The position numbers were made by a program, and so were the translations under genes. DNA of 64,000 nucleotides from Flavobacteriales bacterium (GTDB lineage: Bacteria > Bacteroidota > Bacteroidia > Flavobacteriales_F > PHOS-HE28), in contig JBGTIB010000306.1 in assembly GCA_041745875.1 (NCBI GenBank), forward strand, positions 298 through 64,297, written 5' to 3'. Every line of letters starts with the position of its first letter. Positions within the stretch are counted from its first letter, which is position 1. The notes under the pieces are model-generated. The model was not told where the DNA came from. It searched no databases and saw only the letters and a list, made by a program, of their open reading frames with translations. Of this stretch, positions 26,558-64,000 are shown piece by piece.

Positions 26558-26598
26558 TATTCCAGAAGCCTTTACCACCATACAACTTTGCCAACCTC

Positions 26599-40002: not shown

Positions 40003-40088
40003 GTTTCATCTACTACTCACGTGGTATTGATGGTGCTCTACCGCACCCAGTACTTCGTCAACGCATTCACCGCGCAACCGCGATAAAG

Positions 40089-43844: not shown

Positions 43845-43890
43845 TGTCGGGTTCTTACTTGAACCCGTCCTGGCAGCTGTATTTGCTTCG
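43845..43890 (+). promoter_or_regulatory. conserved bipartite motif copy 1 (TGTCGGGTTyTTACTTG-N20/21-TTGCTTCG)
   Basis: One of five copies; ends 7 nt before the ATG at 43898. Confidence 0.55.
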
Positions 43891-43897
43891 TCGATCC

Positions 43898-47373: not shown

Positions 47374-47374
47374 C

Positions 47375-49153
47375 ATGCAACGTAAGACCTTCAACCTGGT
47401 ATTGGCGATCGGCGTAAGCTGCTTGACCGGCGTTACGACCAATGCGCAGGTCGGCATCAACACCAATGGGGGCGCACCCGCTGCCTCCGCCATGCTCGAT
47501 GTGGATGCAAGCGCGTTGCCCGCCAATGGGAAGCGGGGCTTGCTACTGCCGCGGATGACCGCCGGAGAGCGTGAAGCGATCCCAGCTCCGGCAACCGGAC
47601 TTCTCGTGTATGAGACGACCACCAATGCCTATTGGTACTTCAATGGAACGCTCTGGATGCAATTATTCGGATCGTACACGGACTGGCAGTTCCCAGGCAA
47701 CACGGGCATCGTGCCGGGCACGCATTTCCTGGGCACCAACACTGCCGTACCGCTGGAATTCCGGCGCAACAATATGCGCAGCGCCTGGGTCTCGTCCGCA
47801 GGAACGAATACCGCATGGGGTTACCTGGCGCTGGCAGTGAACTCAGGCACGAACAATACGGCGCTCGGATCCAGGGCGCTGGCTGCCAGCACGACCGGTT
47901 CGAGGAACACGGCCGTGGGTTCGAATGCCCTGGCCAACAGTGGTAGCTCGAACAGTGTGGCTGTTGGCGCGAACGCCCTACGTGTTGGAACATCCGTGAT
48001 CGCCCAGACCGCAGTAGGGGCCCGCGCCATGGAGAACTATACAAGCGGTGCGGGCAATACGGCCGTTGGGTCGAACGCACTCTTGGTGGCAACCCCCACG
48101 AATTGCACTGCGGTTGGGCAGATCGCACTGCAATATTCGACGGGTGCGAACAACACAGTATTCGGCAATCAAACGATGATCGCCAATACGAATGGCTCGG
48201 GGAATACCGCGTTCGGATCTTTGGCCTTATCCAGCCTTGCGTCCGGCTCCAACAATACGCTCATAGGCCGTATGAATTATTTCACTTCTGGTAGCGACAA
48301 CACCAGCGTCGGGGCCTTTTACTATTTGACAAGTGGTACCGGGAATTGTGGTATTGGAGGGGGTGGGGGAGACAATACCGGCAACTACAACACGCTAATG
48401 GGTTCCGGGTCACACCTGGACAATGATGATGGCGCTTACGGTACGGCGTTGGGTGCAGGAACGCTGGGGTATATGCCGAACACCCCCTCATCAACGGACT
48501 TTTGCACGGCCGCAGGTTATGTTGCCTTTACCGGCATCACGGCAAACAATATGACGGCCATCGGATACAACGCCATGGCACCTGGCGGTAACGTGATCCG
48601 CTTCGGTAACGCGGCCAACAACACCGGCCTTATTGGCGGCTTCGGGGCGTGGCAGAACCTTAGCGATGCGCGATACAAGAAGAACGTGCGAGAGAACGTG
48701 CCTGGACTGGACTTCATCCTCCGGCTGCGCCCGGTCACCTATCGCTTTGATGTGAACGCTTACGACACGTTCACTGGTCTCGCCGATCACATGACCCCCG
48801 AACGGAGTTCTGAAGAGCTTGCCACTTACACTACCCACGCAAATGCCTCGTCTGACATCCGCCGCATCGGCTTCATCGCACAGGAAGTGGAAAGCGCCGC
48901 CGAATCACTGGGCTTCGAGTTCTCCGGGGTGCATCGACCCATGGACGACAAGGACCACTACACCATCGGCTACGAACAGTTCGTGGTGCCCCTGGTGAAA
49001 GCGGTACAGGAGCAGCAGGAGCAGCTTGACACCATGCTCGTTGAGTTGAACGCAGCGATGCTCCGTGTGGAACTACTAAGCGCCGACATACGCGAGGGCG
49101 TTACACTTCCCGCAATGCCGCCGCGCACTTCGGCAAACTCCCAACGGCCATGA
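47375..49153 (+). CDS. tail-fibre-domain protein (S74 C-terminal chaperone domain)
   Basis: Start at MQRKTFNLVLAIGVSCLTGVTTNAQ, 1 nt after the previous stop; same N-terminal module; SDARYKKNV...LRPVTYRFD. Confidence 0.85.
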   Translation: MQRKTFNLVLAIGVSCLTGVTTNAQVGINTNGGAPAASAMLDVDASALPANGKRGLLLPRMTAGEREAIPAPATGLLVYETTTNAYWYFNGTLWMQLFGSYTDWQFPGNTGIVPGTHFLGTNTAVPLEFRRNNMRSAWVSSAGTNTAWGYLALAVNSGTNNTALGSRALAASTTGSRNTAVGSNALANSGSSNSVAVGANALRVGTSVIAQTAVGARAMENYTSGAGNTAVGSNALLVATPTNCTAVGQIALQYSTGANNTVFGNQTMIANTNGSGNTAFGSLALSSLASGSNNTLIGRMNYFTSGSDNTSVGAFYYLTSGTGNCGIGGGGGDNTGNYNTLMGSGSHLDNDDGAYGTALGAGTLGYMPNTPSSTDFCTAAGYVAFTGITANNMTAIGYNAMAPGGNVIRFGNAANNTGLIGGFGAWQNLSDARYKKNVRENVPGLDFILRLRPVTYRFDVNAYDTFTGLADHMTPERSSEELATYTTHANASSDIRRIGFIAQEVESAAESLGFEFSGVHRPMDDKDHYTIGYEQFVVPLVKAVQEQQEQLDTMLVELNAAMLRVELLSADIREGVTLPAMPPRTSANSQRP

Positions 49154-50670
49154 AATTCCCGGGACTACTCTCTGCCTTGTTATGTGCTCCGGCAGCATTC
49201 GGGCAACTGTGTTCGGCAGAGGGTGTTGTGATCTCCATTGCCACAGGTACCGTGCTCACCGTGGAAGGTGACATCCTGCTGAACACCAGCGCCACCTGTG
49301 CCAATCAGGGCGAGTTGCGCGTGGCCGGCGATTGGACCAATGCCAGCGGTGGTTCCGTGATGACCGCCGCCAGTGCCGGTGTGGTCCACTTGTACGATGG
49401 CCCCCAAACGATCGATGGTACTTCCGTCACCGACTTCCGCAACCTGCGCATCAGTGGCGGGGACAAAACCCTTGAACAGGATGCAGTGGTCGGTCTGCCT
49501 GGTTCAGCCACTGGAACACTGGACCTCGATGGGGCCACGCTGCTGCTGAACGGACGCACGTTCTCCGTGTTCAATGCCGCCGCGACCGCTGTGGTCGACA
49601 ATGGGGGCAGCGTACGCAGCGAGAGCGTCGATCTGGCAAGCCGCTTCCAGTGGGCACTTGGCGCGGATGTGGGCGAGCATCGCATCCCTTTCAGCACGGC
49701 GGCGGGTACTGCTTTGCCATTCGCCTTTACGCCAGTAGCGCCCTACGCCGCCAACACTTTGTTGAGCGTTGCCACCTATCCCACAGCACCGGACAACACA
49801 CCCTACGCGGTGACCCCGAACCAGCAGGTGTTGCACATCATGGGCTTCGAGGTGGTGGACAACAGCCCCAATACCGTGGACCGTTTCTGGCTGGTGGACC
49901 TGCCCAACGGAAACTTCACTGGCGAGTTGCTCCTGAGCTACACGCCGCCGGAGGATGCGACCATGGGCCCCGGCCCTGTGCGCGCCCAGCGCTGGCTTGA
50001 GAGTGCAGGTACCTGGCAACCGCCACTGCCCGGGCAAAGCAACCCCGGCTTGCGCGAAGCCTTGGTACCAGCAGTGCTGTTCAGCGAAAGCGTGAACCCC
50101 GTGAATGAGCACATCTGGGCAATGGCCTACGCCAATTTGCCCCTGCCTATTGAACTGATCGCCTTCGACGCCATCGCCGTGGACAACGCCCATGTCCATT
50201 GCCTGTGGACCACCGCCAGCGAACGTGACAACGACCACTTTACCGTGGAGCGCAGCCGCGATGCGGTGCTGTTCGAGGAGGTGGGACAGGTACCAGGTGC
50301 CGGTCATTCCAATACCCCCTTGCATTACACCTTCAACGACATGAGGCCCTATCCGGGCGTGAGCTACTACCGCCTGCGCCAGACGGACTTCGATGGTACC
50401 GCGACGTGGTCACAGGCAGTCCCCGTTCACTTTACGACAACAGTTGGCGTAAGCGTGTACCCCAACCCGAACAATGGCGCGTTCACCATACATCGGCAGC
50501 AGGCGGACCTTCCGCTGTCCTTGCAACTGACCGACGGCCTGGGCAGGCTTGTACACAGTTGGAACATGCCCCAGGGAGTGGACCGGCAGTCCGTACAGTT
50601 CGACCTGGCCAGCGGTGCTTACACCCTCCGTTGGGACAACGAGCAACTGAAGCTGGTCATCAGCCGGTGA
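49150..50670 (+). CDS. T9SS C-terminal-sorting-domain protein
   Basis: ATGA overlap with the upstream fibre gene; signal peptide; LPIELIAFDA...VERSRDAVLFEEVG...SYYRLRQTDFDG module; CTD VSVYPNPNNGAFTI. Confidence 0.8.
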   Translation: MKFPGLLSALLCAPAAFGQLCSAEGVVISIATGTVLTVEGDILLNTSATCANQGELRVAGDWTNASGGSVMTAASAGVVHLYDGPQTIDGTSVTDFRNLRISGGDKTLEQDAVVGLPGSATGTLDLDGATLLLNGRTFSVFNAAATAVVDNGGSVRSESVDLASRFQWALGADVGEHRIPFSTAAGTALPFAFTPVAPYAANTLLSVATYPTAPDNTPYAVTPNQQVLHIMGFEVVDNSPNTVDRFWLVDLPNGNFTGELLLSYTPPEDATMGPGPVRAQRWLESAGTWQPPLPGQSNPGLREALVPAVLFSESVNPVNEHIWAMAYANLPLPIELIAFDAIAVDNAHVHCLWTTASERDNDHFTVERSRDAVLFEEVGQVPGAGHSNTPLHYTFNDMRPYPGVSYYRLRQTDFDGTATWSQAVPVHFTTTVGVSVYPNPNNGAFTIHRQQADLPLSLQLTDGLGRLVHSWNMPQGVDRQSVQFDLASGAYTLRWDNEQLKLVISR

Positions 50671-50725
50671 GGAGCTGTTGACCCCGCCGCCTTCTCAAGG
50701 ACCCGCACGCCAGTGCGCCACTTCA

Positions 50726-50770
50726 TGTCGGGTTTTTACTTGCCGAACGCCCTCGCATCTTCTTGCTTCG
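50726..50770 (+). promoter_or_regulatory. conserved bipartite motif copy 2
   Basis: tgtcgggtttttacttg-N20-ttgcttcg, 44 nt upstream of the AraC ATG. Confidence 0.55.
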
Positions 50771-50814
50771 GAGATCTCTTCAGACCCCCGCCTAACCCGA
50801 ACGTGGTATTTCAA

Positions 50815-51738
50815 ATGCCGCCGCAGCCCCCAACCTTCGGTGTACCGAACGGTAGCCCCATGGATGCCTGGTCCGAAGCGATGCCCAAATCCGAAAGCCA
50901 ACTTCAAGCGCCACCCCTGTTCGCCGACTACGGTGAGTACATCCCCGTTGCGAACGATCCCTTGTTCGGCGTGGTGCAGCGTATGGCGCATATGCATTTC
51001 CTGGCTCCGCTGCCACCGGAGCAGCTGGCACCGGACAGCTACATCAAGTTGGCATTGATCCTGGATGGTGAGCCACACTACTTCGATGGCCAAGGCGAAC
51101 CCCTGGACTGGCACGATGGCTTTGCCGGTCATGTCCCCCCTCGCAAAGGCATTGTGACAAAAAGTGATGGACCTGTCCGCTGCCTGATGGCAAACTTCTA
51201 TCCGAGTGCCTTCTTCCAACTGTTCGGAGGCCCGGTAGATCGGTTCAATGGTCTCATGATACCACCCGAACAACTGCTGGGCGATGGTGCTGCGACGCTC
51301 TATGCGGGAGTGCGCGCCACCCATGACCCACGGATAGCACTCGATGTGGTGAAGTGTTTCCTGCGCGAACTGATCACAGAACAGGCACCCGCGCAACCGT
51401 CACCCATCGCGCGACTCGAACATTACATCCGCGAACGCAAAGGCATGGTGCTGGTGAACGAGCTCGCCGAGCTGGCAGGTCTTTCCGAACGCCAGCTTCA
51501 GCGCCGCTTCAAGGAGGAGGTGGGTCTTTCGCCCAAAGCCTTCTGTTCGGTGGTGCGCTTCAACCACGTGTACAGCGAAATGAAACGCACTGGAAAACTG
51601 GACCTTGATGTAGCCCTGGCCTGTGGCTACTTCGATGAGAGCCACATGATGAAGGATCTCTCCTACTTTCTGGGTAAGGCGCCAAAACGTTTCGTATCGC
51701 TCATTCGCCCCATGGTGGACCTGAACCTGGGGCACTGA
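50815..51738 (+). CDS. AraC/XylS family transcriptional regulator (copy A)
   Basis: C-terminal dual HTH (VNELAELAGLSERQLQRRFKEEVGLSPKAFCSVVRFNHVY...ACGYFDESHMMKDLSYFLGKAP). Start set at MPPQPP because the paralog's upstream extension is in a different frame. Confidence 0.8.
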   Translation: MPPQPPTFGVPNGSPMDAWSEAMPKSESQLQAPPLFADYGEYIPVANDPLFGVVQRMAHMHFLAPLPPEQLAPDSYIKLALILDGEPHYFDGQGEPLDWHDGFAGHVPPRKGIVTKSDGPVRCLMANFYPSAFFQLFGGPVDRFNGLMIPPEQLLGDGAATLYAGVRATHDPRIALDVVKCFLRELITEQAPAQPSPIARLEHYIRERKGMVLVNELAELAGLSERQLQRRFKEEVGLSPKAFCSVVRFNHVYSEMKRTGKLDLDVALACGYFDESHMMKDLSYFLGKAPKRFVSLIRPMVDLNLGH

Positions 51739-51804: not shown

Positions 51805-51909
51805 AGGTCCGAACCGATAAGACCGTCATACCACACGCATATCACTGAGCACGCGGCACCATAATTCAAATTCCCCTTGTAGCAAGGTCATTGATCCGCG
51901 TTGCACTCC

Positions 51910-54831
51910 ATGAAGCGCTTCCTTCTCCTTCCATTGTTGATGGTCCTTTCATTCGGGGGATACACCCAAGGAGTAGGGATCAACAACCCCACCCCGGATC
52001 CTTCCGCCTTGCTTGACGTGAACAGCACAACCAAGGGCGTGCTCCTTTCACGGATGACCTCTGTGCAACGCGTGGCCATTCCTGCACCTGCCACTGGACT
52101 ACTTGTGTTCGATAGCACACTGAACGAGTTCTGGTACTTCGACGGCACCGCATGGGTGCCTTTACTATCGGCCACGAAAGGATGGGCCTTGAACGGCAAT
52201 GCCGGAACGGTTGATGGCACGCACTTCCTGGGCACTACGGATAACATTCCCCTGAGCTTTCGGGTGAATGGGGTGCAAGCCGGTCGCATTGACCACTTGA
52301 TATCAAATAGCTACTACGGCTTTAATGCCGGAGCAGGAACTACGACAGGGTACGGCAATACCGCGAACGGGCAAGCCGCATTACAAAGCAACACGACCGG
52401 ATATCGGAACGTTGCCATCGGCAACTATGCGCTCAGTGCCAACACGACGGGTTTCTGGAACACTGCGACCGGAGTGAGTGCTTTGGCATCCAATACAACA
52501 GGTAGGGACAATGTAGCCTATGGTGGTGGTGGCCTCTTCAACAATACGAACGGCAACTTCAACACCGCCGTTGGAGGGGTGGCCCTTCGTCAAAACACGG
52601 AAGGTTCCAGCAACACGGCGATCGGCCTCAGCGCACTCTACAACAATGTCGCAGGGTCCAAGGCTACCGCCATTGGAGAATTCGCCATGTTCAATTCCAA
52701 CAATACGACCACCGCTTTCATCAATCAGAATGTGGCCATCGGAGCTTACGCATTATATGGGTCGACCACCATAGCTAATAATACCGGAAACAACAATACG
52801 GCCGTTGGGTATGAGACCCTTCGGAACAATTCCTCCGGCAGGGGAAATACGGCTATGGGTACCGTAGCATTACGTGCGAACACCATCGGCAATTGGAATA
52901 CCGCGGTGGGCGATAGCGCGTTGTTCGCCAACACTTCCGGGATCAACAACACTGCCAATGGGGCGTTCGCGCTCAGGACCAATTCAACAGGCGCCCAGAA
53001 CACAGCGGTCGGAAGGGATGCTTTGCTTGTCAATACGACTGGTTCTTTGAACGAAGCCTTTGGGTACCGTGCCCTCTACAGCAACACCACCGGCAATAGG
53101 AACGCGGCAATGGGAGACAGTGCCTTGTTCTACAATACGACCGGATCCGACAACGCGGCTTTCGGTTCCAAGACGTTGCTTTCCAACACCACAGGCCGGT
53201 TCAACACAGCCAGTGGTAGGGAAGCAATGAGGTCCAACACTACCGGCAGCTCCAATGCAGCTCTTGGCTACCGGGCCATGTACAGCAATACCAGCGGCTC
53301 AGATAACGTGGCCGTGGGAGATAGCGCCCTCCTCGCCAACACGATCGCAAGCTACAATACCGCCATTGGCAAACATGCATTGCGGTCGAACTCTGCAAAC
53401 TACAACACCGGGGTGGGCTACCAGGCTTTGTTCGCGAACACCTTCGGTTATATGAATAGTGCTTTCGGAGGCCAGGCGCTGCGGAACAACATTTCCGGGG
53501 TCTTCAATACGGCAGTGGGTTACAGCTCTCTGAACCAGAACACCCTGGGCGGTGATAACACGGCGATCGGATACTCCAGCATGGGTCAGAATACAACTGG
53601 AAACCGGAACGCCGCGACCGGTTATTGGGCTTTGACCAAGAACACCACCGGTGCATACAACACGGCCACTGGAGCGGAGGCCATGCGGGAAAATACTTCC
53701 GGAGAGGACAACGTCGCTCAGGGTTACCAGGCCTTATGGTCCAATAGCACGGGAAGCAATAACACCGCAGCCGGTAGACGCGCATTGGCAACTAATCGCA
53801 CCGGATCTTCGGCGACCGCTATAGGTTACGGTGCGATGGAGAACAGTAATTCCAGTACGACACCATTCACCAATTACAGCGTGGCTATTGGTTTCGAGGC
53901 CCTGAGGGGGTCGGCTTTAGCAGCCTCCAATACGGGCAACTATAATTCCGCTGTTGGCTATCAGGCCCTGTATTCCAATTCCATGGGCTACGACAACGTG
54001 GCCATGGGAGTGGAGGCCATGTATGCCAATACCACCGGAAATCGAAATAGTGCCATTGGCCGAAGTGCGCTGTACAGCAATACCACTGGCTACGGTAATA
54101 GCGCCATGGGATTTGCTGCACTCACTTTCAACACGACGGGATATGGGAATACCGCTTCAGGTCGCGGGGCATTGTACGCGAACACGACGGGCGTTTCCAA
54201 TACGGCCGTTGGGCTTACTGCACTCTACACCAACACCACGGGCAATTACAACACCGCGATCGGCAACGCGGTGGATGTGGACGCCACCAACCGGGAGAAT
54301 ACGGTGACCATTGGTGGCACCGGCAATCTGGCACTGGGCGGAAGCAACCGCGTGCGTATCGGCAACAATGCCATGACCTCCATCGGTGGCCAGGTAGGTT
54401 TCGCTGCGATCTCTGACGAACGCACCAAGACCAATGTGTTGGAGAATGTTCCGGGGCTTGCGTTCATTACACGCCTCAAGCCGGTCACATACAAATTCAG
54501 TATCGCACAAAGCAATGCGGTGCAGGGGAAAATGGATACGGTCAGTTGGGCGGGTAAGTATGACATCGAGCAGATCCGTTTCACCGGCTTCCTTGCGCAG
54601 CAGGTGGAGCAAGCTGCCATGGACTCAGGGTACGACTTCAGTGGTGTGGACAAACCAGAGGACGGGCAAGGGCTTTGGGGCTTACGCTACGGGGAGTTCA
54701 CAGTACCCCTGGTAAAAGCGGTACAGGAAATGAACGACACCGTGCAGACGCAACAGATCCTGATCGTGCAATTGCAGGAAGAGTTGAAGGCCCTGCGCCA
54801 AGAACTGCAACAACTCCAGAACGGCCGGTGA
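51910..54831 (+). CDS. tail-fibre-domain protein with long 17-residue repeat shaft and S74 C-terminal chaperone domain
   Basis: Signal peptide MKRFLLLPLLMVLSFGGYTQ; N-terminal module GINNPTPDPSALLDV..GVLLSRMTSVQRVAIPAPATGLLVFD...FWYFDGTAW; dozens of NTA.G..AL..NTTG.. units; SDERTKTNV...LKPVTYKFS...VPLVKAVQE. Confidence 0.85.
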   Translation: MKRFLLLPLLMVLSFGGYTQGVGINNPTPDPSALLDVNSTTKGVLLSRMTSVQRVAIPAPATGLLVFDSTLNEFWYFDGTAWVPLLSATKGWALNGNAGTVDGTHFLGTTDNIPLSFRVNGVQAGRIDHLISNSYYGFNAGAGTTTGYGNTANGQAALQSNTTGYRNVAIGNYALSANTTGFWNTATGVSALASNTTGRDNVAYGGGGLFNNTNGNFNTAVGGVALRQNTEGSSNTAIGLSALYNNVAGSKATAIGEFAMFNSNNTTTAFINQNVAIGAYALYGSTTIANNTGNNNTAVGYETLRNNSSGRGNTAMGTVALRANTIGNWNTAVGDSALFANTSGINNTANGAFALRTNSTGAQNTAVGRDALLVNTTGSLNEAFGYRALYSNTTGNRNAAMGDSALFYNTTGSDNAAFGSKTLLSNTTGRFNTASGREAMRSNTTGSSNAALGYRAMYSNTSGSDNVAVGDSALLANTIASYNTAIGKHALRSNSANYNTGVGYQALFANTFGYMNSAFGGQALRNNISGVFNTAVGYSSLNQNTLGGDNTAIGYSSMGQNTTGNRNAATGYWALTKNTTGAYNTATGAEAMRENTSGEDNVAQGYQALWSNSTGSNNTAAGRRALATNRTGSSATAIGYGAMENSNSSTTPFTNYSVAIGFEALRGSALAASNTGNYNSAVGYQALYSNSMGYDNVAMGVEAMYANTTGNRNSAIGRSALYSNTTGYGNSAMGFAALTFNTTGYGNTASGRGALYANTTGVSNTAVGLTALYTNTTGNYNTAIGNAVDVDATNRENTVTIGGTGNLALGGSNRVRIGNNAMTSIGGQVGFAAISDERTKTNVLENVPGLAFITRLKPVTYKFSIAQSNAVQGKMDTVSWAGKYDIEQIRFTGFLAQQVEQAAMDSGYDFSGVDKPEDGQGLWGLRYGEFTVPLVKAVQEMNDTVQTQQILIVQLQEELKALRQELQQLQNGR

Positions 54832-55031
54832 GGTGGTTCACCAGCATGGCCTTCGGTGTATACAGGCAATAGGTCGACGGTCGATCGTGAACCATATATT
54901 GCTGAATTGCCCCGATCTGGAAATGATCTTATTGCGTAGATCCGCCATCCATGGCCTACTTCCTACGTGGCATTTTGAGCCTCGCGGACCGACCCGATCT
55001 TCGCCATTTAGTGCGCAGCGTTGAATGACCA

Positions 55032-55076
55032 TGTCGGGTTTTTACTTGCGCCATGTTCTCGCATTTTCTTGGTTCG
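55032..55076 (+). promoter_or_regulatory. conserved bipartite motif copy 4
   Basis: tgtcgggtttttacttg-N20-ttggttcg, 43 nt upstream of the AraC ATG. Confidence 0.5.
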
Positions 55077-55119
55077 AAGATCTCTTCGACCTGCGCCTAA
55101 CCCGAACGTGGTATTTCAA

Positions 55120-56043
55120 ATGCCGCCGCACCTCCCAACCTTCGGTGTTCCGAACGGCAGCCCCAAGGATGCCCGTCCCGAAGCGATGTCCGAGACCGAT
55201 CACGAACTTCAAGCGCCCCCGATCTTCGCCGACTACGGTGAGTATATCCCCACTGCGAACGAGCCCTTGTTCGGCATCGTGCAGCGCATGGCACAAATGC
55301 ACTTCCTGGCGCCGCTGCCACCCGAGCAATTGGCACCGGACAGCTACATCAAGCTGGCATTGATCCCGGAAGGGGAGCCACACTACTTCGATGGCCAGGG
55401 CGAACCCATGGATTGGCACGATGGGGTCGCAGGCCATGTACCGCCACGCAAAGGCATTGTTGCTACGAGCAATGGACCAGTACGCTGCCTGATGGTCAAC
55501 TTCTATCCAAGCGCATTCCACCGGCTTTTCGGTGGTCCGGTGGATCGGTTCAATGGGAGGATGGTACCACCAGAACAGGTGCTGGGCACTGCTGCAGCCA
55601 CGCTCTATGAGAATGTTCGCGCGACGATCCATGCACAGTCGACGATCGATGTCGTTAAGAATTTCCTGATCGACCTGGTCGCCAGGAAGGCCCCCGCTCC
55701 ACCATCATCCATTGCGCGTCTGGAGCATTACATCCGCGAACGAAAGGGCAAGGTGCTGGTGAATGAGCTCTCTGAACTTGCCGGACTTTCCGAGCGCCAA
55801 CTCCAGCGGCGCTTCAAGGAGGAGATCGGCCTTTCGCCCAAAGCCTTCTGTTCGGTGGTGCGCTTCAACCACGTGTACAGCGAAATGAAACGCATTGGAA
55901 AATTGGACCTGGACGTGGCCATTTCCTGTGGCTATTTTGACGAGAGCCACATGATGAAGGATCTCTCCTACTTTCTGGGTAAGGCACCAAAACGTTTCGT
56001 ATCGCTGATCCGCCCCATGGTGGACCTGAACCTGGGGCATTGA
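55120..56043 (+). CDS. AraC/XylS family transcriptional regulator (copy B, close paralog of 50815)
   Basis: Collinear and highly similar to copy A from MPP(Q/H)(P/L)PTFGVPNGSP to the identical C-terminus FVSLIRPMVDLNLGH. Confidence 0.8.
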   Translation: MPPHLPTFGVPNGSPKDARPEAMSETDHELQAPPIFADYGEYIPTANEPLFGIVQRMAQMHFLAPLPPEQLAPDSYIKLALIPEGEPHYFDGQGEPMDWHDGVAGHVPPRKGIVATSNGPVRCLMVNFYPSAFHRLFGGPVDRFNGRMVPPEQVLGTAAATLYENVRATIHAQSTIDVVKNFLIDLVARKAPAPPSSIARLEHYIRERKGKVLVNELSELAGLSERQLQRRFKEEIGLSPKAFCSVVRFNHVYSEMKRIGKLDLDVAISCGYFDESHMMKDLSYFLGKAPKRFVSLIRPMVDLNLGH

Positions 56044-56064
56044 TAACAAATGCTTCACACGCCA

Positions 56065-56110
56065 TGTCGGGTTCTTACTTGGACCAACCGCGCCGTCATT
56101 GTTGCTTGCG
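56065..56110 (+). promoter_or_regulatory. conserved bipartite motif copy 5
   Basis: tgtcgggttcttacttg-N20-ttgcttgcg, begins 21 nt after the AraC stop and lies upstream of the FGE-like array. Confidence 0.5.
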
Positions 56111-56296
56111 CCAGCCAGGCACGTTACTACCAACGTGGTATTGTATCCGGCATCCTCGTGTAGTCCTTTTGAAAGGTGGTCCTTCAACACGGAGATGACC
56201 GTTCACCATTCAACGAATATCAACACCAGCAGCGGATCGCATCAATAACACGATGGCCCGGCGGGCGCGCGCATATGCTCCACCACACACTACACC

Positions 56297-57859
56297 ATGC
56301 AAATGGAGACCCACGCACTCACACTCCTGTTCGCAGGCACGCTGGCGACCGCCCTCCACGCCAACAACATCCAGGTCACCAACACCACCCTCGTTGACAA
56401 TACCGGCAGCACCGTGAAGGTGCAGTTCGATGTGACCTGGGAGAACAGCTGGCGGGGTGAGGGGGTGAACAACTGGGATGCAGCATGGGTGTTCGTGAAG
56501 TACAAGCTTTTTGGCGATGACGCTTGCGACCATGTGGACCTTCAGCACACCGGTCATGTGGCCCCGAGCGGTTGCTTGATCGACAATGGCCTGCTCGCAC
56601 CGGGCGCGGCGTATGATGCGGCAAGCAACCCAGTGGTGGGTGTGTTCATCCGCCGCGATGTGGAGGGCACCGGCACGTTCGTGGCCACTGGCGTGCAATT
56701 GCTCTGGGACTATTCCACCCTGGGCGTATTCTTTGGTGACATCAGCGAAGTGCGCGTGTATGCCATTGAGATGGTGTACATCAATGAAGGTGCGTTCCAC
56801 CTGGGCAGTGGCGGTACGGAAACGAGCGCCTTCAAGACGGGCAATACCACACAACCCTACCACATCACTTCGGAGGATCCCATTCAGGTCTCTTTGAACC
56901 AGCAAGCACTCTGGGCGACCGGGGACATCGTGACCGGACCCCTTGCCGCCAACTTCCCCAAGGGCTTTGCGGCCAGCTACATGATGAAGTACGAGATCAG
57001 CCAGCAGCAGTATGTGGACTTCTTGAACAGCCTGACGCGCCAACAGCAGGACACACGGACCGGAACGGACCTGTCCATGGGCATCTCGGCCGTCACAGAT
57101 ACCTACGTAATGAGCGCCACGTCCTCCATTATTGCGCGCAACGCCATTCGATGCGATTCCAACATCGATCCCAACGGGACGATCACATTCTATTGCGATG
57201 CCAATGGGAACGGTACAGGTGGCGAAGCGGATGACGGCCTCTGGGTGGCGTGCGGCTTCCTGCATGGTGGCGACATGGCGGCCTACCTGGATTGGAGCGG
57301 CCTAAGGCCCATGACCGAACTGGAATTCGAGAAGGCTTGCCGGGGCGCGCTTCCGCCCTTGGTGAACGAGTTCCCATGGCGCAGTGCGAGCATATGCCTT
57401 CAAGCCTATGCGCTCGCCAGCAGTGGTGCCGCCGATGAAGCCATCTCATCGAACTACAGTACAACGGTGGGCAATGCGAACTATTCAAGCACCGGCTTGC
57501 TTGCTCCGGCGCGTGTGGGCATCTACGCCGCGCATCCCTCCAATGCCGGTCGTACCACGGCGGGGGCTGGCTATTACGGAACCATGGAGCTCGCCGGGAA
57601 CCTGTGGGAGTTCGCCGTTTCTCTCGCCACTACAGCAGGGCAGGCCTTTCCCGGCACCCATGGCGACGGGCGCCTTTCTGTGACCGGGCAGGGGGATCAA
57701 GCAGCATGGCCGACCCAGGCGTCCGGCTACGGCACAAGAGGTGGCACCTTCTCGTCCAATTCGGAGAACCTGCGCGTCTCCGACCGCGAGTTCGCCGGAG
57801 CTATCGTCCCGGTAAGAGCGAATAACCTAGGCGGCCGTGGAGTCCGCACAGCACCGTGA
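56297..57859 (+). CDS. secreted FGE-sulfatase (SUMF1/EgtB/PvdO-like, C-type-lectin fold) domain protein, paralog 1
   Basis: Signal peptide ..ATALHA/NNIQV; YMMKYEISQQQYVDFLNSL; DWSGLRPMTELEFEKACRG; EFPW; YYGTMELAGNLWEF; RGGTF; terminal GGRGVRTAP. Confidence 0.75.
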   Translation: MQMETHALTLLFAGTLATALHANNIQVTNTTLVDNTGSTVKVQFDVTWENSWRGEGVNNWDAAWVFVKYKLFGDDACDHVDLQHTGHVAPSGCLIDNGLLAPGAAYDAASNPVVGVFIRRDVEGTGTFVATGVQLLWDYSTLGVFFGDISEVRVYAIEMVYINEGAFHLGSGGTETSAFKTGNTTQPYHITSEDPIQVSLNQQALWATGDIVTGPLAANFPKGFAASYMMKYEISQQQYVDFLNSLTRQQQDTRTGTDLSMGISAVTDTYVMSATSSIIARNAIRCDSNIDPNGTITFYCDANGNGTGGEADDGLWVACGFLHGGDMAAYLDWSGLRPMTELEFEKACRGALPPLVNEFPWRSASICLQAYALASSGAADEAISSNYSTTVGNANYSSTGLLAPARVGIYAAHPSNAGRTTAGAGYYGTMELAGNLWEFAVSLATTAGQAFPGTHGDGRLSVTGQGDQAAWPTQASGYGTRGGTFSSNSENLRVSDREFAGAIVPVRANNLGGRGVRTAP

Positions 57860-57901
57860 ACCATGCTGCTCCACCAGAACCACACGAACACTACTGTACC
57901 A

Positions 57902-59401
57902 ATGCGATCGATCACTTTCCTCCCCCTCCTTTTGCTGCTGGCAGGCACCACCCTCCACGCCAACAACATCCAGGTCACCAACACCACCTTGGTGGACAAC
58001 ACCGGAAGCACCGTAAAGGTGCAATTCGATATCAGTTGGGAGAACAGCTGGCGCGGCGGCGGTGTGGCCAACTGGGATGCCGCATGGGTCTTTGTGAAGT
58101 ACCAACTGAGCAATGGTGCCTGGGGACATGCGCGCTTGGGCAATACCGGGCACACTGTGCCAACGGGCAGTTTGATGGAGATGGGCCTGCTCACCCCGGG
58201 CAGCTCATATGACGCCACCACGAACCCGGTGATCGGCACCTTTCTGCGGCGCGATGCCGATGGCACCGGCACCTTCAGCGCTTCCGGCGTGCAACTGTTC
58301 TGGGACCATGCGGCGCAGGGGATCCTCGCCAGCAACGATCTCACAGCGGTCCAAGTTTTCGCGGTGGAGATGGTGTACGTGAACGAAGGGCCGTTCATGC
58401 TCGGTGGCCCAGGCCTTTTGGAGCACAACAAGTTCCAGACAGCTATGAGCCAAGCTCCTTTTCAAGTTACTTCTGAAGCACCATTGGTGATCTCCTCTAC
58501 CGGGTTTTGGGCAATGGGGCATATCGTTGCTGGCACGTTGGGCGCCGCATTCCCAAAAGGCTATGCGGCGAGCTATGTGATGAAGTATGAGATCAGCCAG
58601 AAACAACTTGTGGACTTCCTGAATACGCTCCTCCGTGTCCAGCAAGATCTCTGTGTCTTGAACATGGAAGCCGAATGGGTACTGAATGGACAGAACACGA
58701 ACGATCCCATCTACCGTCAGGGTGTGGGAGCAAGTGGAGCGAACAACATAGGAGCGCCAGTCCACTTCCACACCTATTTCCCATTTGTTGCCAGCAATTA
58801 TCTGGATCGATCCCTGCTATACCGATACTTGGACTGGTCAGGATTGCGGCCCATGAGTGAAATGGAGTACGAGAAGGCATGCCGTGGGCCATTACCACCC
58901 ACCGGCAACGAGTATGCATGGGGCACTGAAGTCCTGGCGATCACAGCGAATGCCTATACATTGACCGATCCCGGATATGCAGGGGAGTCCATACTCACTG
59001 GTTTTGATAACTCCGGGAACGCGAATTTCACCGCTGCAGGAGGTGATGCATTCATTGTTGGCCCTTTCCGTGTCGGCATATTCGCCGCCCATCCCAACAA
59101 TAATGGACGCGCGGGTTCGGGTGCGAGCTATTATGGCATAATGGAACTCACGGGTAACGTGGGGGAACAGGTGGTGGGTGTGTCAACACTGACAGGGCAG
59201 AGTTACACGGGTATCCATGGCAACGGCACGTTGGACACGTGGGGTCTTGCCGACGTGCCTGGCTGGCCGATCGACCTCATGGTCAGGGGCGGATCGTTCT
59301 TCAGTGGATCGTTCCAGGGCTATGTTTCCTATCGGCAAGCCAGCAGTACTTCTGGTGGAGGTCCACCAAACGGTGGCCGCGGGGTGCGCACCGCACCTTG
59401 A
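57902..59401 (+). CDS. secreted FGE-sulfatase-domain protein, paralog 2
   Basis: MRSITFLPLLLLLAGTTLHA/NNIQV; YVMKYEISQKQLVDFLNTL; DWSGLRPMSEMEYEKACRG; EYAWG; YYGIMELTGNVGEQ; RGGSF; GGRGVRTAP. Confidence 0.75.
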   Translation: MRSITFLPLLLLLAGTTLHANNIQVTNTTLVDNTGSTVKVQFDISWENSWRGGGVANWDAAWVFVKYQLSNGAWGHARLGNTGHTVPTGSLMEMGLLTPGSSYDATTNPVIGTFLRRDADGTGTFSASGVQLFWDHAAQGILASNDLTAVQVFAVEMVYVNEGPFMLGGPGLLEHNKFQTAMSQAPFQVTSEAPLVISSTGFWAMGHIVAGTLGAAFPKGYAASYVMKYEISQKQLVDFLNTLLRVQQDLCVLNMEAEWVLNGQNTNDPIYRQGVGASGANNIGAPVHFHTYFPFVASNYLDRSLLYRYLDWSGLRPMSEMEYEKACRGPLPPTGNEYAWGTEVLAITANAYTLTDPGYAGESILTGFDNSGNANFTAAGGDAFIVGPFRVGIFAAHPNNNGRAGSGASYYGIMELTGNVGEQVVGVSTLTGQSYTGIHGNGTLDTWGLADVPGWPIDLMVRGGSFFSGSFQGYVSYRQASSTSGGGPPNGGRGVRTAP

Positions 59402-59436
59402 TCACTTCCCTTAATACGATCTCAGACCCTACACCC

Positions 59437-60981
59437 ATGCAAGCGTTCCACTTCCTTCCCCTCCTTGGCCTGCTGGCAGGCACCACCCTCCACGCCAACA
59501 ACATCCAGGTCACCAACACCACCCTGGTGGACAACACCGGCAGCACCGTGAAGGTGCAGTTCGACATCAGTTGGGAGAACAGCTGGCGCGGCGGCGGCGT
59601 GAACAACTGGGACGCGGCCTGGGTGTTCGTGAAGTACCGGCAGGGGCAGGGCAACTGGCAACATGTTTACGTGAACCTCTCGGGGCATACCGCGCCTGCG
59701 GGCAGCCTTATTGAACCAGGGCTGGTGGATCCGGGTGCAACCCACAATGCGACAAGTAATCCTGTTGTGGGCCTCTTCCTGCACCGCGATGCAGATGGCA
59801 ACGGCACCTTCACCGCCAACGGTGTGCAGTTGCTGTGGGACTACAGTGTGTTTGGTATCGCATTCAATGACATCAGCCAAGTGCAGGTGTTCGCCATTGA
59901 AATGGTGTATGTGAACCAAGGGGCGTTCGCGGCAGGCGGCGGTGGCACGGAAGTCTATGCCTTCACCCTTACCACCATCAGCACCGGCACGGCCAACACG
60001 GCACCCAGCGGCACCGGCAGCTTAGGCGGTCAGGCAGGAGGTTTCCCCACTGGGCAAACGGCACCCACTAGTGCCACCTGGCCCAACGGCTTCAACGCCT
60101 TCTACTGCATGAAGTACGAGGTAACGCAGCAGGGCTACGTGGACTTCCTGAACACCCTGACCTATACCCAGCAAGCAACGCGCACGGCCACGGCCCCCAC
60201 CAGCGCCGCAGGCACCGGGGCCTTGATCAGCACCAATGCCAACCGCAACGGCATTGACATCCAGATACCGGGCGTGAGCCCCAGCACCCCAGCGCAATAT
60301 GCCTGCAACCTGAACGGCAACGGCGTGTATGGCGAAGCCACGGACGGCATGGACGTCGCCTGCAACTATATGAGTTGGGGCGACCTGACGGCCTACTTGG
60401 ATTGGTGCGGCTTGAGGCCCATGACGGAATTGGAGTTCGAAAAGGCCTGCCGCGGACCCCTGTTGCCGGTGGCCAATGAATATCCATGGGGTACCACAAG
60501 CATCGCAGGCAGTGCCTACACACTGGCCAATCCCGGGGCAGCCAACGAGGGCATCGCCACCAACTACAGCAGCACTTTCGGGAATGCGAGCACTACCATC
60601 ACCGATGGCGCCATCGATGGCCCCCTGCGCGTGGGGATCTTTGCGGCCAATGTCAGCAATAGTGGCCGCGTAACGGCCGGTGCCAGCTACTACGGCATCA
60701 TGGAATTGGGCGGTAACCTGTGGGAGCGGCCGGTTACCATCGGCAATCCGAGCGGCCGGGCATTTACCGGCACGCATGGTAACGGGGTTTTGGCCGTAGG
60801 CGGCGATTCGGATGGGGTCACGTGGCCCACGCCTGGCACAGCGGACGGCGCTGGCTCTCGTGGCGGCCACTGGAACGGCGGTCAGCCGAACGCGTACGTT
60901 GCCACCCGCGGCATTGCCACCTTCGCCGTCAGCAGTCGCGACGATGACAATGGTGGCCGAGGTTGTCGCTTGGTGCCATAG
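59437..60981 (+). CDS. secreted FGE-sulfatase-domain protein, paralog 3
   Basis: MQAFHFLPLLGLLAGTTLHA/NNIQV; YCMKYEVTQQGYVDFLNTL; DWCGLRPMTELEFEKACRG; EYPWG; YYGIMELGGNLWER; RGGHW; GGRGCRLVP. Confidence 0.75.
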   Translation: MQAFHFLPLLGLLAGTTLHANNIQVTNTTLVDNTGSTVKVQFDISWENSWRGGGVNNWDAAWVFVKYRQGQGNWQHVYVNLSGHTAPAGSLIEPGLVDPGATHNATSNPVVGLFLHRDADGNGTFTANGVQLLWDYSVFGIAFNDISQVQVFAIEMVYVNQGAFAAGGGGTEVYAFTLTTISTGTANTAPSGTGSLGGQAGGFPTGQTAPTSATWPNGFNAFYCMKYEVTQQGYVDFLNTLTYTQQATRTATAPTSAAGTGALISTNANRNGIDIQIPGVSPSTPAQYACNLNGNGVYGEATDGMDVACNYMSWGDLTAYLDWCGLRPMTELEFEKACRGPLLPVANEYPWGTTSIAGSAYTLANPGAANEGIATNYSSTFGNASTTITDGAIDGPLRVGIFAANVSNSGRVTAGASYYGIMELGGNLWERPVTIGNPSGRAFTGTHGNGVLAVGGDSDGVTWPTPGTADGAGSRGGHWNGGQPNAYVATRGIATFAVSSRDDDNGGRGCRLVP

Positions 60982-61117
60982 CCGGGGTTTTCAAGCCCTA
61001 ACACAGGGGTATGGGGCCTAGCCCCATAGAAGATTAAGAAGACCAGTTAGCACCGAGATCACCACTCTGGCAACTGATCGCACCGGAACAGCAGCCCAGC
61101 AACACAAGAATAGACCG

Positions 61118-62698
61118 ATGAGCCCGAACAACGAACAAACCCCCTGCATCCTCCTTGCCGTGGTCCTGCTTTTGGTGGCGCAGAGCACGCGGGCCAACAA
61201 CATCCAGGTCACCAACATCACCCTGCAGGACAACACCGGCAGCTCCGTGATGCTGCACTTCGACCTGAGCTGGGAGAATAGCTGGCGAGGTGGTCCGGTA
61301 GCGAATTGGGATGCGGCATGGCTCTTCGCAAAGGTGAAGTTGAGCAGCGGCGAGTGGCAGCACATCCAGCTGGCGAACAGTGGGCCCGAAGCGCCCGCCG
61401 GCACGCAGATCGAATTGGGGCTGGTGCTTCCAGCAAGTGTTTACAACAGCAGCAGCAATCCGGTGGTGGGTGTGTTCCTGTACCGCAACACCAATGGCTA
61501 CGGGAACCTCGATGCCACCGATGTGCAACTTCTTTGGAACTACCAGGACCAGGGCATTGCGGTTCCGGTACAGGTGGCCGAAGTGCGCGTGTACGCCATC
61601 GAAATGGTGTACGTGAACGAAGGCGCGTTCATGGCAGGTGGTGGTGGTTTGGGCAGCGTGTACACCTACCCCACCACAAGCGTTCCTTATTCCGTGACGA
61701 GCGAGGCCGCGATCAACGTGGGCACCACGGCGGGCCAGCTGTACTACGCGGAAGGCTCCGGACAATCGGGCGATCGTGGTGGTCCCATTCCGGCCAACTA
61801 CCCCAAGGGCTTCAAGGCCTTCTATGCCATGAAGTACGAAGTGAGCCAGCAGGGTTATGCTGACTTTCTGAACACCTTGACCTTTGCCCAACAGCTCACA
61901 CGCACCGCCACCGCACCCAGCTCAGTGGCGGGCACCGGTGCGCTCTCCAGCAGCAATGCCGATCGCAACGGCATCGACATCAGCACGCCCGGCGTGGATC
62001 CCGGAACAGCGGCCGTGTATGCCTGCAACCTGAATGGCAACAGCGTGTACGGCGAAGCCGATGACGGCAAGGACATCGCGTGCAACCACCTGAGCATTTC
62101 GGACCTGTGGGCCTACCTGGACTGGAGCGGTTTGCGGCCCATGAGCGAACTGGAATTCGAGAAGGCCTGTCGCGGACCGAGCACTCCTGTGGCGAACGAG
62201 TACCCCTGGGGTGCCGGCATCGCACTGACGGGCTACACGCTCGCGGATGCAGGCACCACCAACGAAGGCATCGCCACGGCATACAGCCCCATCAACGGCA
62301 ATGCGGTCTGGCAGAACACCTCGGTGAACTTCGATGGGCCTGTGCGTGTGGGTGCCTTCGCCGCGAATGCGGGGAATACCGGCCGTGCATCGTCCGGTGC
62401 CAGCTATTACGGCATCATGGAACTGGGTGGCAATGTCAACGAGCGGGCGATCACACTAGGGCATCCCGGCGGTCGCAGTTACAGCGGGAACGGCCATGGC
62501 GACGGCATGTTGGCGGTCGATGGCACCGCCGATCCCGACACCTGGACCACCGCGATCACGGCCACCGGTTTCCGGGGTGGCGGCTGGAACGACTTCGCCG
62601 CCGGTCGCTTACAAACTTCCGACCGTGGCCTCGTGAACTGGGTCCGCCTGGATCGCTATGTCGACAGCGGCGGACGTGGCGTACGCACCGCACCTTGA
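61118..62698 (+). CDS. secreted FGE-sulfatase-domain protein, paralog 4
   Basis: Signal peptide ..VAQSTRA/NNIQV; YAMKYEVSQQGYADFLNTL; DWSGLRPMSELEFEKACRG; EYPWG; YYGIMELGGNVNER; RGGGW; GGRGVRTAP. Confidence 0.75.
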   Translation: MSPNNEQTPCILLAVVLLLVAQSTRANNIQVTNITLQDNTGSSVMLHFDLSWENSWRGGPVANWDAAWLFAKVKLSSGEWQHIQLANSGPEAPAGTQIELGLVLPASVYNSSSNPVVGVFLYRNTNGYGNLDATDVQLLWNYQDQGIAVPVQVAEVRVYAIEMVYVNEGAFMAGGGGLGSVYTYPTTSVPYSVTSEAAINVGTTAGQLYYAEGSGQSGDRGGPIPANYPKGFKAFYAMKYEVSQQGYADFLNTLTFAQQLTRTATAPSSVAGTGALSSSNADRNGIDISTPGVDPGTAAVYACNLNGNSVYGEADDGKDIACNHLSISDLWAYLDWSGLRPMSELEFEKACRGPSTPVANEYPWGAGIALTGYTLADAGTTNEGIATAYSPINGNAVWQNTSVNFDGPVRVGAFAANAGNTGRASSGASYYGIMELGGNVNERAITLGHPGGRSYSGNGHGDGMLAVDGTADPDTWTTAITATGFRGGGWNDFAAGRLQTSDRGLVNWVRLDRYVDSGGRGVRTAP

Positions 62699-62711: not shown

Positions 62712-64000
62712 ATGAGCTACACAACACAGCGCGGTGCTCGCCTCATGAAGGCCCCACACTCCATCATCTGGTTGTTGCTGACCGTCCTTGCTACGGCGAA
62801 TGCGATGGCGCAGACGAACCCGACACCACAGAACATTCCCTACACGCAGGACTTCAGTGCCCTGGCACATAACAGCACTACGCTACCTGCGGGTTGGCAA
62901 GGGTGGCGCATCGGCGCTGCTGCTTCCACCAGCTACCAGGTGGTGCCCGCCACGGCCGACCTTCCGTTGATCGCATCGAGTACAGCGGCCACCACAACGG
63001 GCGGCATCCACAACTACGCCGGGAAGATCGGCTTCCTCAATTCAGGAACGGTGAACGCCGCAGTGGTTCTGGCGCTGAATACGCGTGCACGTACCAACAT
63101 CGAGGTCGCATTCGAACTGATGACCATCAGGAACCCTTATTCGGCCTTTCCTCCGAACCTGGGGTTCAGTGAAGCGGTGATGCAATACCGCATCGGCACA
63201 AGCGGCAATTTCACCACCCTGCCCGACACGGAATATCAGAGCAATTCCACCAACCAGACCGCTCCGGTCACCACGCCGCAGAACAGCCAGTCCTACAGCA
63301 TCACACTTCCTGCGGCATGCGAAGATCAGCCCGTAGTGCAACTCCGCTGGGTGGCGCGCGATGTGATAGCGGCCAGTTCCAGACCGAGCTTCGCTGTGGA
63401 CAACATCAGCGTCACCGGTACGTGCATTCCGGCCAGCGCAGAGATCAGTTATGCTGGCTCACCCTACTGCAGCGATGTCGGGATCGCGGATCCAACACTG
63501 ATCGGGACAAGTGGCGGGGTCTACACCGCAAGTGGAATGACCATCGATGCAGCCACCGGTACGATCACTTTGAACGGTAGCAGTTCCGGGAACGTGACCT
63601 ACACCATTGTTGCGGAGAACGGGTGCACGGGTGCTGAAGCCACTGCAGATGTGGTCATCAGTCAGGCCGCTTCGGCGGATGCCGGTGGAGCCTATACCTC
63701 GGTGGAGGCCGCGACAACTGCGATCTCCGCCATCGCCAACGGACCGGGCAGTTGGAGCGGCGGCCAGGGCACCTTCGCAGATGCGGGTACCCCCAGCACC
63801 ACTTACACGCCGATCCCGGCGGAATTGGGCTACACCGTGGTGCTCACCTGGACCACCGACGATCCCGATGGCGCCGGGCCGTGTTCCGCAGCGAGCGATG
63901 ATGCGTTGATGCACGTGGATTTCCTCGTCTACACACCCATGTTCTCCGGAGGAATTGGTCGGGGCGATGCCAGCACGGCCTACGAAGCACCACCGATCAC
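62712..64000 (+). CDS. secreted surface protein, 5' partial view (runs off the window end; not in the ORF track)
   Basis: My manual translation of this frame from the ATG at 62712 (alternative ATG at 62745, MKAPHSIIWLLLTVLATANAMAQ signal peptide) shows no stop to 64000. The N-terminal domain ends ...VQLRWVARDVIAASSRPSFAVDNISVTG. Confidence 0.65.
   Translation, partial: MSYTTQRGARLMKAPHSIIWLLLTVLATANAMAQTNPTPQNIPYTQDFSALAHNSTTLPAGWQGWRIGAAASTSYQVVPATADLPLIASSTAATTTGGIHNYAGKIGFLNSGTVNAAVVLALNTRARTNIEVAFELMTIRNPYSAFPPNLGFSEAVMQYRIGTSGNFTTLPDTEYQSNSTNQTAPVTTPQNSQSYSITLPAACEDQPVVQLRWVARDVIAASSRPSFAVDNISVTGTCIPASAEISYAGSPYCSDVGIADPTLIGTSGGVYTASGMTIDAATGTITLNGSSSGNVTYTIVAENGCTGAEATADVVISQAASADAGGAYTSVEAATTAISAIANGPGSWSGGQGTFADAGTPSTTYTPIPAELGYTVVLTWTTDDPDGAGPCSAASDDALMHVDFLVYTPMFSGGIGRGDASTAYEAPPI

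Follow-up and report, generated by a model that had tools for sequence, protein, structure and literature searches.

The 3′-terminal part of a 64,000-nt stretch of a Flavobacteriales genome (GenBank assembly GCA_041745875.1, contig JBGTIB010000306.1; the whole stretch is referred to below as the window) carries four consecutive + strand genes, A to D, whose products each combine a signal peptide, an N-terminal β-sandwich and a domain with the fold of formylglycine-generating enzymes (FGEs) and C-type lectins (CLec). All four open reading frames (ORFs) are intact; their lengths (Table 1) and the gaps of 42, 35 and 136 nt that separate A from B, B from C and C from D match exactly those given in a preliminary description of this DNA, the lengths of B and C being counted from the ATG just ahead of the hydrophobic signal peptide. 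Pairwise identity among the four paralogs is 44–57%, and B is the most divergent copy. A gene for an AraC-family regulator lies directly upstream of the array, and a gene for a glycine-rich-repeat protein follows it. The array was compared with 85 sampled loci elsewhere that bear members of the same family (numbered L001, L002 and so on), at which ORFs were called by a simple longest-ORF rule. We consider it probable that the four proteins constitute a non-catalytic, Sec-exported repertoire of binding proteins that works together with the glycine-rich-repeat partner.

The FGE/CLec fold, already proposed in the preliminary description, is recovered at the level of both sequence and predicted structure. 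The FGE-sulfatase family PF03781 matches A, C and D above the gathering threshold (6.8e-7, 8.5e-11 and 1.5e-7, respectively); B has no Pfam match at 0.01, yet the family hidden Markov model (HMM) aligns to it end to end (E = 3e-181). An AlphaFold2 model of C, computed from 67 homologs (predicted local distance difference test, pLDDT, 89.7; predicted template modelling score, pTM, 0.91), has FGE structures such as 6xtq (E = 2e-8) as its best Foldseek matches in the PDB, and the 35 significant matches, with E values from 2e-8 to 1e-3, are FGE, CalU17, OvsA and EgtB. Alignment to human FGE with hhalign reaches a probability of 95.6% and ends before the C-terminal loop; the central part of the human query agrees with a separate alignment. 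A structure search of BFVD matched only two FGE-fold phage proteins, and none of the four proteins had a match in NCBIfam, PADLOC or PHROGs. With FGE/SUMF1 and EgtB/OvoA/OvsA, their best structural matches (E = 2e-8), the window proteins share the hallmark blocks that had been quoted for them, namely xMKYEVSQ..DFLN, GNxWE and the RLPTEAEWE-like GLRPMTELEFEKACRG, as well as the canonical cysteine of the EKACRG block, which is invariant in the family; the blocks that can be aligned to FGE and EgtB are the structural ones. In comparison with these enzymes, the window proteins have a hypervariable active-site loop, large inserts and an added N-terminal domain.

All four signal peptides are of type I and end in LHA or TRA, followed by an invariant NNIQV. 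A lipobox cysteine is absent from all four, the single cysteine of D standing at the start of the h-region, so the earlier view that the proteins are not lipoproteins and are cleaved before NNIQV is upheld. They had also been described as secreted; this holds for export by Sec and not for surface exposure, as both a lipid anchor and the C-terminal sorting domain (CTD) that marks type IX secretion system (T9SS) cargo are lacking: the four proteins have no match to Por_Secre_tail or CHU_C, and their C-termini are the FGE-fold tail GGRGVRTAP. The mature proteins begin with a domain of ~145 aa (residues ~21–165 in C) that is an all-β sandwich in both AlphaFold2 models. It has no Pfam or NCBIfam match, and a Foldseek search of the PDB with the isolated domain returned nothing significant (best E = 0.044, TM ~0.3); CBM2/3-like and adenovirus-knob-like sandwiches were considered, the matches proved insignificant, and the fold was left unassigned. 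What had been noticed as an unrecognised N-terminal module is a real domain, as its profile finds it widely and beside FGE-sulfatase domains. The profile search yielded 2,307 clusters at 50% identity, nearly always with the domain immediately after the signal peptide, and in eight of nine atypical architectures tested an FGE-sulfatase domain follows it. It is thus a conserved, widespread domain in fixed pairing with this type of FGE fold.

The residues required for the known chemistries of this fold are missing. In human FGE the catalytic loop carries the Cu-binding cysteines C336 and C341; in the family, the frequency of cysteine after the RGG motif is at most 0.04 (67 sequences), and in this part the window paralogs contain none, save one non-conserved cysteine in the GGRGC of C. 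The absence of the Cu-binding pair is read from these missing cysteines, the profile alignment with human FGE stopping short of the loop. Conserved cysteines sit elsewhere (224, 290, 309 and 338). Lacking the Cu-binding pair, the four proteins are not formylglycine-generating enzymes. The DinB-like helical domain that contributes the histidine iron triad of EgtB and OvoA has no Pfam match in them, the N-terminal domain being all-β instead. No sulfatase gene was found among the scanned ORFs of the window (all but a few small ones) or among 122 genes flanking relatives at other loci, which speaks against their being ordinary sulfatase maturases. The family does have invariant charged residues, namely E228, D322, R327, E331, E333, E335, K336, E371, R398, R411, E430 and H447.

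The stretch from RGG to GGRG has the highest entropy in the mature protein (2.5–2.8 bits). Among the four paralogs, identity falls from 62% in the N-terminal domain and 51% in the core to 25% in this C-terminal segment, which is equivalent to the variable region (VR) that diversity-generating retroelements (DGRs) mutate in relatives. The preliminary description had drawn attention to large insertions between the conserved blocks; these do differ between paralogs (the linker is 33% identical, and B lacks CNLNGN...DG, a 12-aa cysteine-containing insert), but the last 35 residues diverge more, at 25% identity, and the insertions are less important than the VR-equivalent segment. Complete DGR cassettes are present on two family members. 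At L028, the VR is formed by the final 143 nt of the family gene; behind it come an Avd-like ORF, a gene for a reverse transcriptase (RT) and then the template repeat (TR), and all 23 of the 23 mismatches between VR and TR fall on TR adenines (P = 3e-14); at L063, 14 of 23 do so (P = 1e-5). On the short contig of L059, an Avd-like ORF (L059:4238–4576) lies directly downstream of a family gene. This L028 VR lines up, column by column, with the RGG...GGRGVR stretch of the four window proteins. Of its columns, 19 are mutable according to the TR of L028; in family members without a DGR these have a mean entropy of 3.28 bits, against 1.11 bits in the 25 fixed columns (P = 7e-8), and the window paralogs themselves show 3.4 distinct residues at mutable and 1.96 at fixed columns (P = 8e-6). 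Within the 64-kb window there is no homolog of an RT and no second copy of any paralog 3′ end that could be a TR; a more distant DGR may lie beyond its ends. As the four genes differ where a DGR would mutate them, they look like hard-wired specificity variants of a ligand-binding scaffold of the TvpA type.

FGE-type CLec proteins, those with an N-terminal extension included, are known targets of DGRs (category b; Wu et al. 2018, PMC5758913); 16 of 71 have such an extension, of unknown function, and the TvpA-type variable proteins are FGE-fold, non-catalytic and ligand-binding (PMC5758913). The array had originally been left without assignment to a described system, a position that no longer stands now that its proteins can be placed in this N-terminally extended class and two members of the family carry DGR cassettes. 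The ligand-binding, non-enzymatic character first suggested for them is supported by the fold, the lost cysteine pair and the variable segment. With TvpA-type proteins, those of the window share an FGE-sulfatase/CLec fold devoid of the residues for formylglycine generation, a C-terminal variable segment within the scaffold RGG..W...R...GGRG.R, and the presence of several copies per genome. They differ in that RT, Avd and TR are all missing from the window, their diversity being fixed in four paralogs, and in their obligate-looking downstream partner; moreover, TvpA is a lipoprotein, whereas the window proteins have a type I signal peptide, no anchor and an additional β-sandwich of ~145 aa at the mature N-terminus. 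TvpA of Treponema denticola is described as surface-associated (PMC5758913).

The family is widespread and its diversification in arrays is recurrent. In the related metagenome-assembled genome (MAG) of L001, orthologs of C and D occur in the same order at 81% and 85% identity, and A and B have none; as these values stand against 44–57% between paralogs, the paralogs are old and have been retained. About 19 of the 85 loci have arrays, with copy numbers from two to five or more. A protein search gave more than 6,500 matches, all labelled FGE or “SUMF1/EgtB/PvdO family nonheme iron enzyme”; genome matches are mostly from Bacteroidota, cultured Algibacter and Winogradskyella strains included, of which Algibacter pectinivorans DSM 25730 and Winogradskyella poriferorum (L075, L077) are examples, with further MAGs labelled Ignavibacteriae, Bdellovibrionota, Verrucomicrobiota, Lentisphaerae, Omnitrophota, Elusimicrobia and Proteobacteria. 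Nothing specific on the repeat, the architecture or the name of the family was found in the literature. Longer members add Lcl_C, Fib_succ_major, Laminin_G_3, PKD, NHL, SdrD_B or PT-HINT pre-toxin modules, and fusions to other binding modules fit a role in recognition. The PT-HINT fusions, together with the tandem arrangement of diverged paralogs that is typical of immunity islands, also raise the question as to whether the array protects the periplasm against foreign toxins in the manner of the FGE-like immunity proteins of type VI secretion systems (T6SSs). Such FGE-like periplasmic immunity proteins exist (bioRxiv 10.1101/2021.05.21.445229). Neither beside the array nor in the sampled loci was an effector, T6SS or toxin gene seen, the PADLOC scan was blank, the constant partner is a repeat protein and not a toxin, and in the PT-HINT fusions the module makes up the N-terminal, targeting portion of the toxin instead of forming a separate immunity gene; we regard this explanation as highly improbable.

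Use of the FGE fold without catalysis in the cell envelope of Bacteroidota is known from GldJ, GldK and PorK, and in GldK/PorK the fold has a structural function (PMC12635249, PMC12421860). With a fold superfamily that is common, a host belonging to the Bacteroidota and genes for T9SS cargo in the surroundings, the four proteins might be taken for paralogs of these gliding and T9SS components, an idea that we find scarcely tenable. They lack the lipoprotein cysteine, and no gldLMN or porLMN genes occur among the scanned ORFs; orthology with GldJ/GldK is contradicted by the absence of a gldKLMN/porKLMN context, the neighbours being AraC, fibre genes and the repeat protein. PorK structures, although expected in the library, are not among the 35 significant PDB matches. 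The family furthermore reaches other phyla, and the last five of the MAG groups named above, from Verrucomicrobiota to Proteobacteria, are not known to have a T9SS.

At most loci a + strand gene begins 10–120 nt past the last family gene. The proteins encoded by these downstream genes share no globular domain; what they have in common is a short motif, [FY]xGGxGRGD. Its first copy usually stands right at the N-terminus of the mature protein (A|QYxGG...), and it recurs in 1–11 copies with a period of 21–27 residues, mostly 23, as in FSGGNGRGDVADLFVSAPIASSI. Lineage variants of the repeat read YEGSNGDGF, YxGGxGSGY, FxGSNDDGF and YxGGxGGG. An ORF matching the strict regular expression lies within 1 kb on the + strand at 45 of the 70 loci with enough flanking sequence, and nine more loci have variant motifs directly after a signal peptide, which brings the total to ~80%, or about 56, of the 70. 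These ORFs carry 3.28 motifs per 1000 aa against a background of 0.127, and the background ORFs with at least two motifs, eight of eight, are also neighbours of family genes. Conversely, alignment-based searches and pattern scans of the collection starting from the repeat alone, covering up to ~600 candidate stretches, found at least 14 loci, and a family gene lies just upstream in 13 of the 13 that have upstream sequence. Even at L028 the pairing persists, the DGR cassette lying between the family gene and the repeat gene. The repeat protein is the near-universal genetic partner of the family, a pairing that is new here. The preliminary description had linked the array to surface fibres; the general, near-obligate partner is instead the downstream repeat protein, which runs past the end of the window.

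In the window, the first repeat of the partner, FSGGIGRGD, is encoded at nt 63942–63968. The partner is 52% identical to an 820-aa protein of L001 that has eight repeats with a period of 23 aa and the same start position. A jackhmmer search with its N-terminal 240 aa retrieved three close homologs only; the N-terminal domain is specific to the lineage, and the repeats alone are general. The partner proteins are all annotated as hypothetical, and neither Pfam nor NCBIfam models the repeat. A T9SS CTD is present in 16 of 55 partners, several of which consist of a signal peptide, the motif or motifs and the CTD alone. Other partners end in a domain of ~250 aa that is common to unrelated secreted proteins of the same MAGs and may be a sorting or anchoring domain. 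This domain (…LEGPY…VDWVVVELR…LIQRDGD…HRNHLG…; the C-terminal ~250 aa of L002:11576–12664, L004:11556–12689 and L009:7017–8177) also terminates carboxylesterases of Flavobacteriales MAGs and lacks a Pfam model. Position 112 of the family HMM, which falls in the N-terminal domain (the NP of S-N-P-V-V-G; residues 108–109 of C), tracks the class of the partner repeat, with Pro at 31 of 32 loci of the RGD type and Asp at seven of ten of the DGF type; this may hint at a contact of the N-terminal domain with the repeat, although the signal is confounded with phylogeny.

A pairing this tight with proteins that have nothing conserved but a short linear repeat could also be that of an enzyme with its substrate. 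FGE-family enzymes recognise linear peptides, and periplasmic proteins of this fold might modify the glycine-rich motif of the partner post-translationally, as FGE does the CxPxR of unfolded sulfatases. The many invariant acidic, basic and histidine residues of the core would suit such an activity, as would the database name “SUMF1/EgtB/PvdO family nonheme iron enzyme”, and no fusion of the repeat to the family module in one polypeptide was found, as would be usual for an enzyme and its substrate. This explanation is nevertheless unlikely. Both the Cu-binding cysteine pair of FGE and a helical iron-site domain of the DinB type are absent, with an all-β N-terminal domain in place of the latter; the loop at the position of the active site is the most variable part of the protein and in relatives is a target of DGR randomisation, so that no conserved catalytic site can reside there; and the repeat has no invariant side chain that could be modified, since DGF, SGY or GGG may stand for RGD and nothing but the glycines and the aromatic residue stays constant.

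Two DNA motifs stand upstream of gene A. The first, ATGTCGGGTTYTTACTTG, has five copies in the window against none expected (at 43844, 50725, 51759, 55031 and 56064). Two of the copies precede fibre genes (those at 43781 and 51901), each AraC paralog has one at its 5′ end, and the fifth precedes gene A; none of the 85 other loci contains the motif, which is specific to this genome. The second, TACTAC-N7-GTATT, has four copies against none expected (24296–24313, 26544–26561, 40011–40028 and 56125–56142), located before and inside an operon encoding a tetratricopeptide-repeat histidine kinase (TPR-HK), before the fibre operon and before gene A; it is also found upstream of family genes in L001, L002 and L004 and of fibre/CTD genes in L001 and L004, and may be a promoter or a GerE response-regulator site. 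A TPR-HK/GerE pair lies directly upstream of the family gene in two of these three related MAGs. Since two DNA motifs are common to the array and the fibre genes, their co-regulation in this lineage is plausible. The shared motif upstream of both had been noted from the outset and is there as described; the proposal built upon it, co-regulation with the fibres, keeps its basis in cis-motifs for this lineage, whereas across the family adjacency to fibres is rare. S74 genes account for four of 67 upstream and one of 55 downstream neighbours, or ~5 of 85 loci by adjacency, and their association with the family as a general rule was rejected on these counts.

Table 1. Features of the array, its surroundings and the retroelement cassettes of relatives (VR-eq., segment equivalent to the variable region; unprefixed positions are those of the window).
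Feature	Position	Strand	Remarks
Paralog A	56297–57859	+	520 aa; VR-eq. nt 57737–57841
Paralog A, domains			signal peptide 1–22; N-terminal β-sandwich 23–165; FGE/CLec fold ~216–520
Paralog B	57902–59401	+	499 aa; VR-eq. nt 59285–59383
Paralog C	59437–60981	+	514 aa; VR-eq. nt 60859–60963
Paralog D	61118–62698	+	526 aa; VR-eq. nt 62573–62680
Partner gene	62745–64000, runs past window end	+	signal peptide and ~400-aa N-terminal domain without family match
AraC-family regulator	55021–56043	+	directly upstream of array; HTH_18 and HTH_AraC matches
18-nt motif ATGTCGGGTTCTTACTTG	56064–56081	+	extends to ...N~21...TTGCTTG; putative operator or promoter element
TACTAC-N7-GTATT	56125–56142	+	172 nt before gene A; putative promoter or site for a response regulator
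Complete DGR cassettes on family members	L028:9992–15252; L063:9887–13465		VR at gene 3′ end, Avd-like ORF, RT, TR

The AraC-family protein encoded directly upstream is a candidate for the local regulator of the array. Its gene is 83–87% identical at the nucleotide level to a second AraC gene of the window (50713–51738), which precedes an S74 fibre gene as the first precedes the FGE-like array. Each of the two has the ATGTCGGGTTYTTACTTG motif on both flanks, as if a unit of regulator and site had been duplicated. The fibre cluster itself (40578–50670 and 51901–54831) encodes five fibre-like proteins and two small T9SS-CTD proteins; one of the fibre-like proteins is collagen-like, with an internal tandem duplication of 237 nt (41295–41768), and four carry an S74 intramolecular chaperone domain and NTAxG head repeats. 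A 976-aa fibre protein matches phage tail-spike PHROGs.

Export by Sec with no onward sorting signal, next to genes of signal transduction, would likewise be expected of periplasmic sensors relaying bound molecules to the neighbouring TPR-HK, guanylate cyclase, LytTR or AraC proteins. Genes for signalling proteins are indeed the commonest class upstream (six response regulators, five histidine kinases, three LytTR and three AraC proteins among 67; guanylate cyclases at L001 and L002), and FGE-type CLec domains act as diversified sensors elsewhere in bacteria (PMC7159879, PMC10907252). These regulators are, however, heterogeneous, being either cytoplasmic (AraC, GerE) or TPR-sensing with no evident site for a periplasmic partner; they occur at ~20% of loci, against ~80% for the repeat partner; and, given the motifs, they are more simply seen as controllers of operon transcription. 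A sensory function thus appears distinctly unlikely.

Taken as a binding repertoire, the array would work as follows. Each protein would consist of the conserved N-terminal β-sandwich and an FGE-type CLec fold whose ligand-binding surface is the RGG-to-GGRG(V)R segment, at the position of the catalytic cysteine loop of FGE. Diversity would be hard-wired in the form of four old paralogs, which would offer a modest set of binding specificities. Transcription of the array runs towards the downstream repeat-protein gene and probably includes it. The repeat protein would serve as an anchor or scaffold to which the paralogs bind by a conserved surface, possibly that of the Trp-rich N-terminal domain, and the variable site would be left to bind external ligands, e.g., polysaccharides or the surfaces of other cells. 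The paralogs themselves having a Sec signal only, it would be the partner that carries the complex to the cell surface. Expression would be coordinated with the S74 fibre genes through the two motifs, possibly by the AraC paralogs and TPR-HK/GerE.

Several points weigh against this interpretation. A T9SS CTD, a lipobox and any other recognisable surface-targeting signal are all absent from the four proteins, which would by default be periplasmic for lack of such a signal, and a periplasmic location fits an adhesin-like role poorly unless the partner exports them. Because the window is without RT or TR, the argument from DGRs rests on homology. An active site that has escaped recognition could be formed by the invariant charged residues in another part of the fold, and instead of offering docking sites the repeat protein could be a substrate or simply be co-expressed. 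The class of the repeat is predicted by the nearest neighbour in 45 of 53 cases, and its covariation with family residues, for which the best column lies in the N-terminal domain, is thus inseparable from phylogeny. The sampled loci, finally, are mostly MAG fragments and skewed to Bacteroidota.

A more specific form of the binding-repertoire proposal, which we advance tentatively and hold to be possible rather than probable, is that of a two-protein display system: a T9SS-anchored or secreted scaffold would offer 1–11 docking repeats of 23 aa, Q[YF]xGGxG[RD]G[DF], into which FGE-fold heads plug via their N-terminal domain, exposing a variable lectin site diversified by arrays or by DGRs. GldK, which captures tail peptides of outer-membrane partners (PMC12635249), provides a precedent for an FGE fold that binds a linear segment of its partner. 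The arrangement is reminiscent of cohesin–dockerin systems in its repeats of ~22–23 residues with Gly/Asp-rich turns, present in 1–11 copies, surface-anchored and linked to modular heads. By comparison with cohesins and dockerins, there is no kinship of sequence or fold, and the likeness would be one of working principle.

Other features of the window were observed in passing. A 98-nt element with internal palindromes has three intergenic copies (6131–6228, 8169–8266 and 11566–11663) that are 65–100% identical and look like repeats of the repetitive extragenic palindromic (REP) or miniature inverted-repeat transposable element (MITE) type. Short hairpins are also formed by a 78-nt unit repeated three times in tandem (20776–21009), just upstream of an HlyD/RND efflux operon, and by an 85-nt unit present twice at 96% identity (5743–5921). 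Between 29183 and 40002, after a two-component system, lie three large + strand ORFs of 584, 2330 and 687 aa in which Pfam recognises one fn3 domain only; the 584-aa protein has no sequence relative in the PDB, and for the 687-aa protein an equally long counterpart is found at the edge of L001. A 559-aa ORF (11740–13419), unrelated to the array, bears a weak likeness to the β-propeller alkylating enzyme CylK (E = 3e-8 over ~95 residues).

For the family at large, thousands of database proteins are labelled as FGE or as non-haem iron enzymes and are without the residues for either chemistry; re-reading them as variable binding proteins locates their likely binding site. The occurrence within one family of diversification by DGRs and by arrays of paralogs amounts to a natural experiment on how recognition surfaces vary. 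Together with its repeat partner, the family constitutes a testable two-gene module in bacteria that abound in activated sludge and in both fresh and sea water. Were the display system proposed above to be true, it would resemble cohesin–dockerin in providing these bacteria with a multivalent cell surface of variable specificity.

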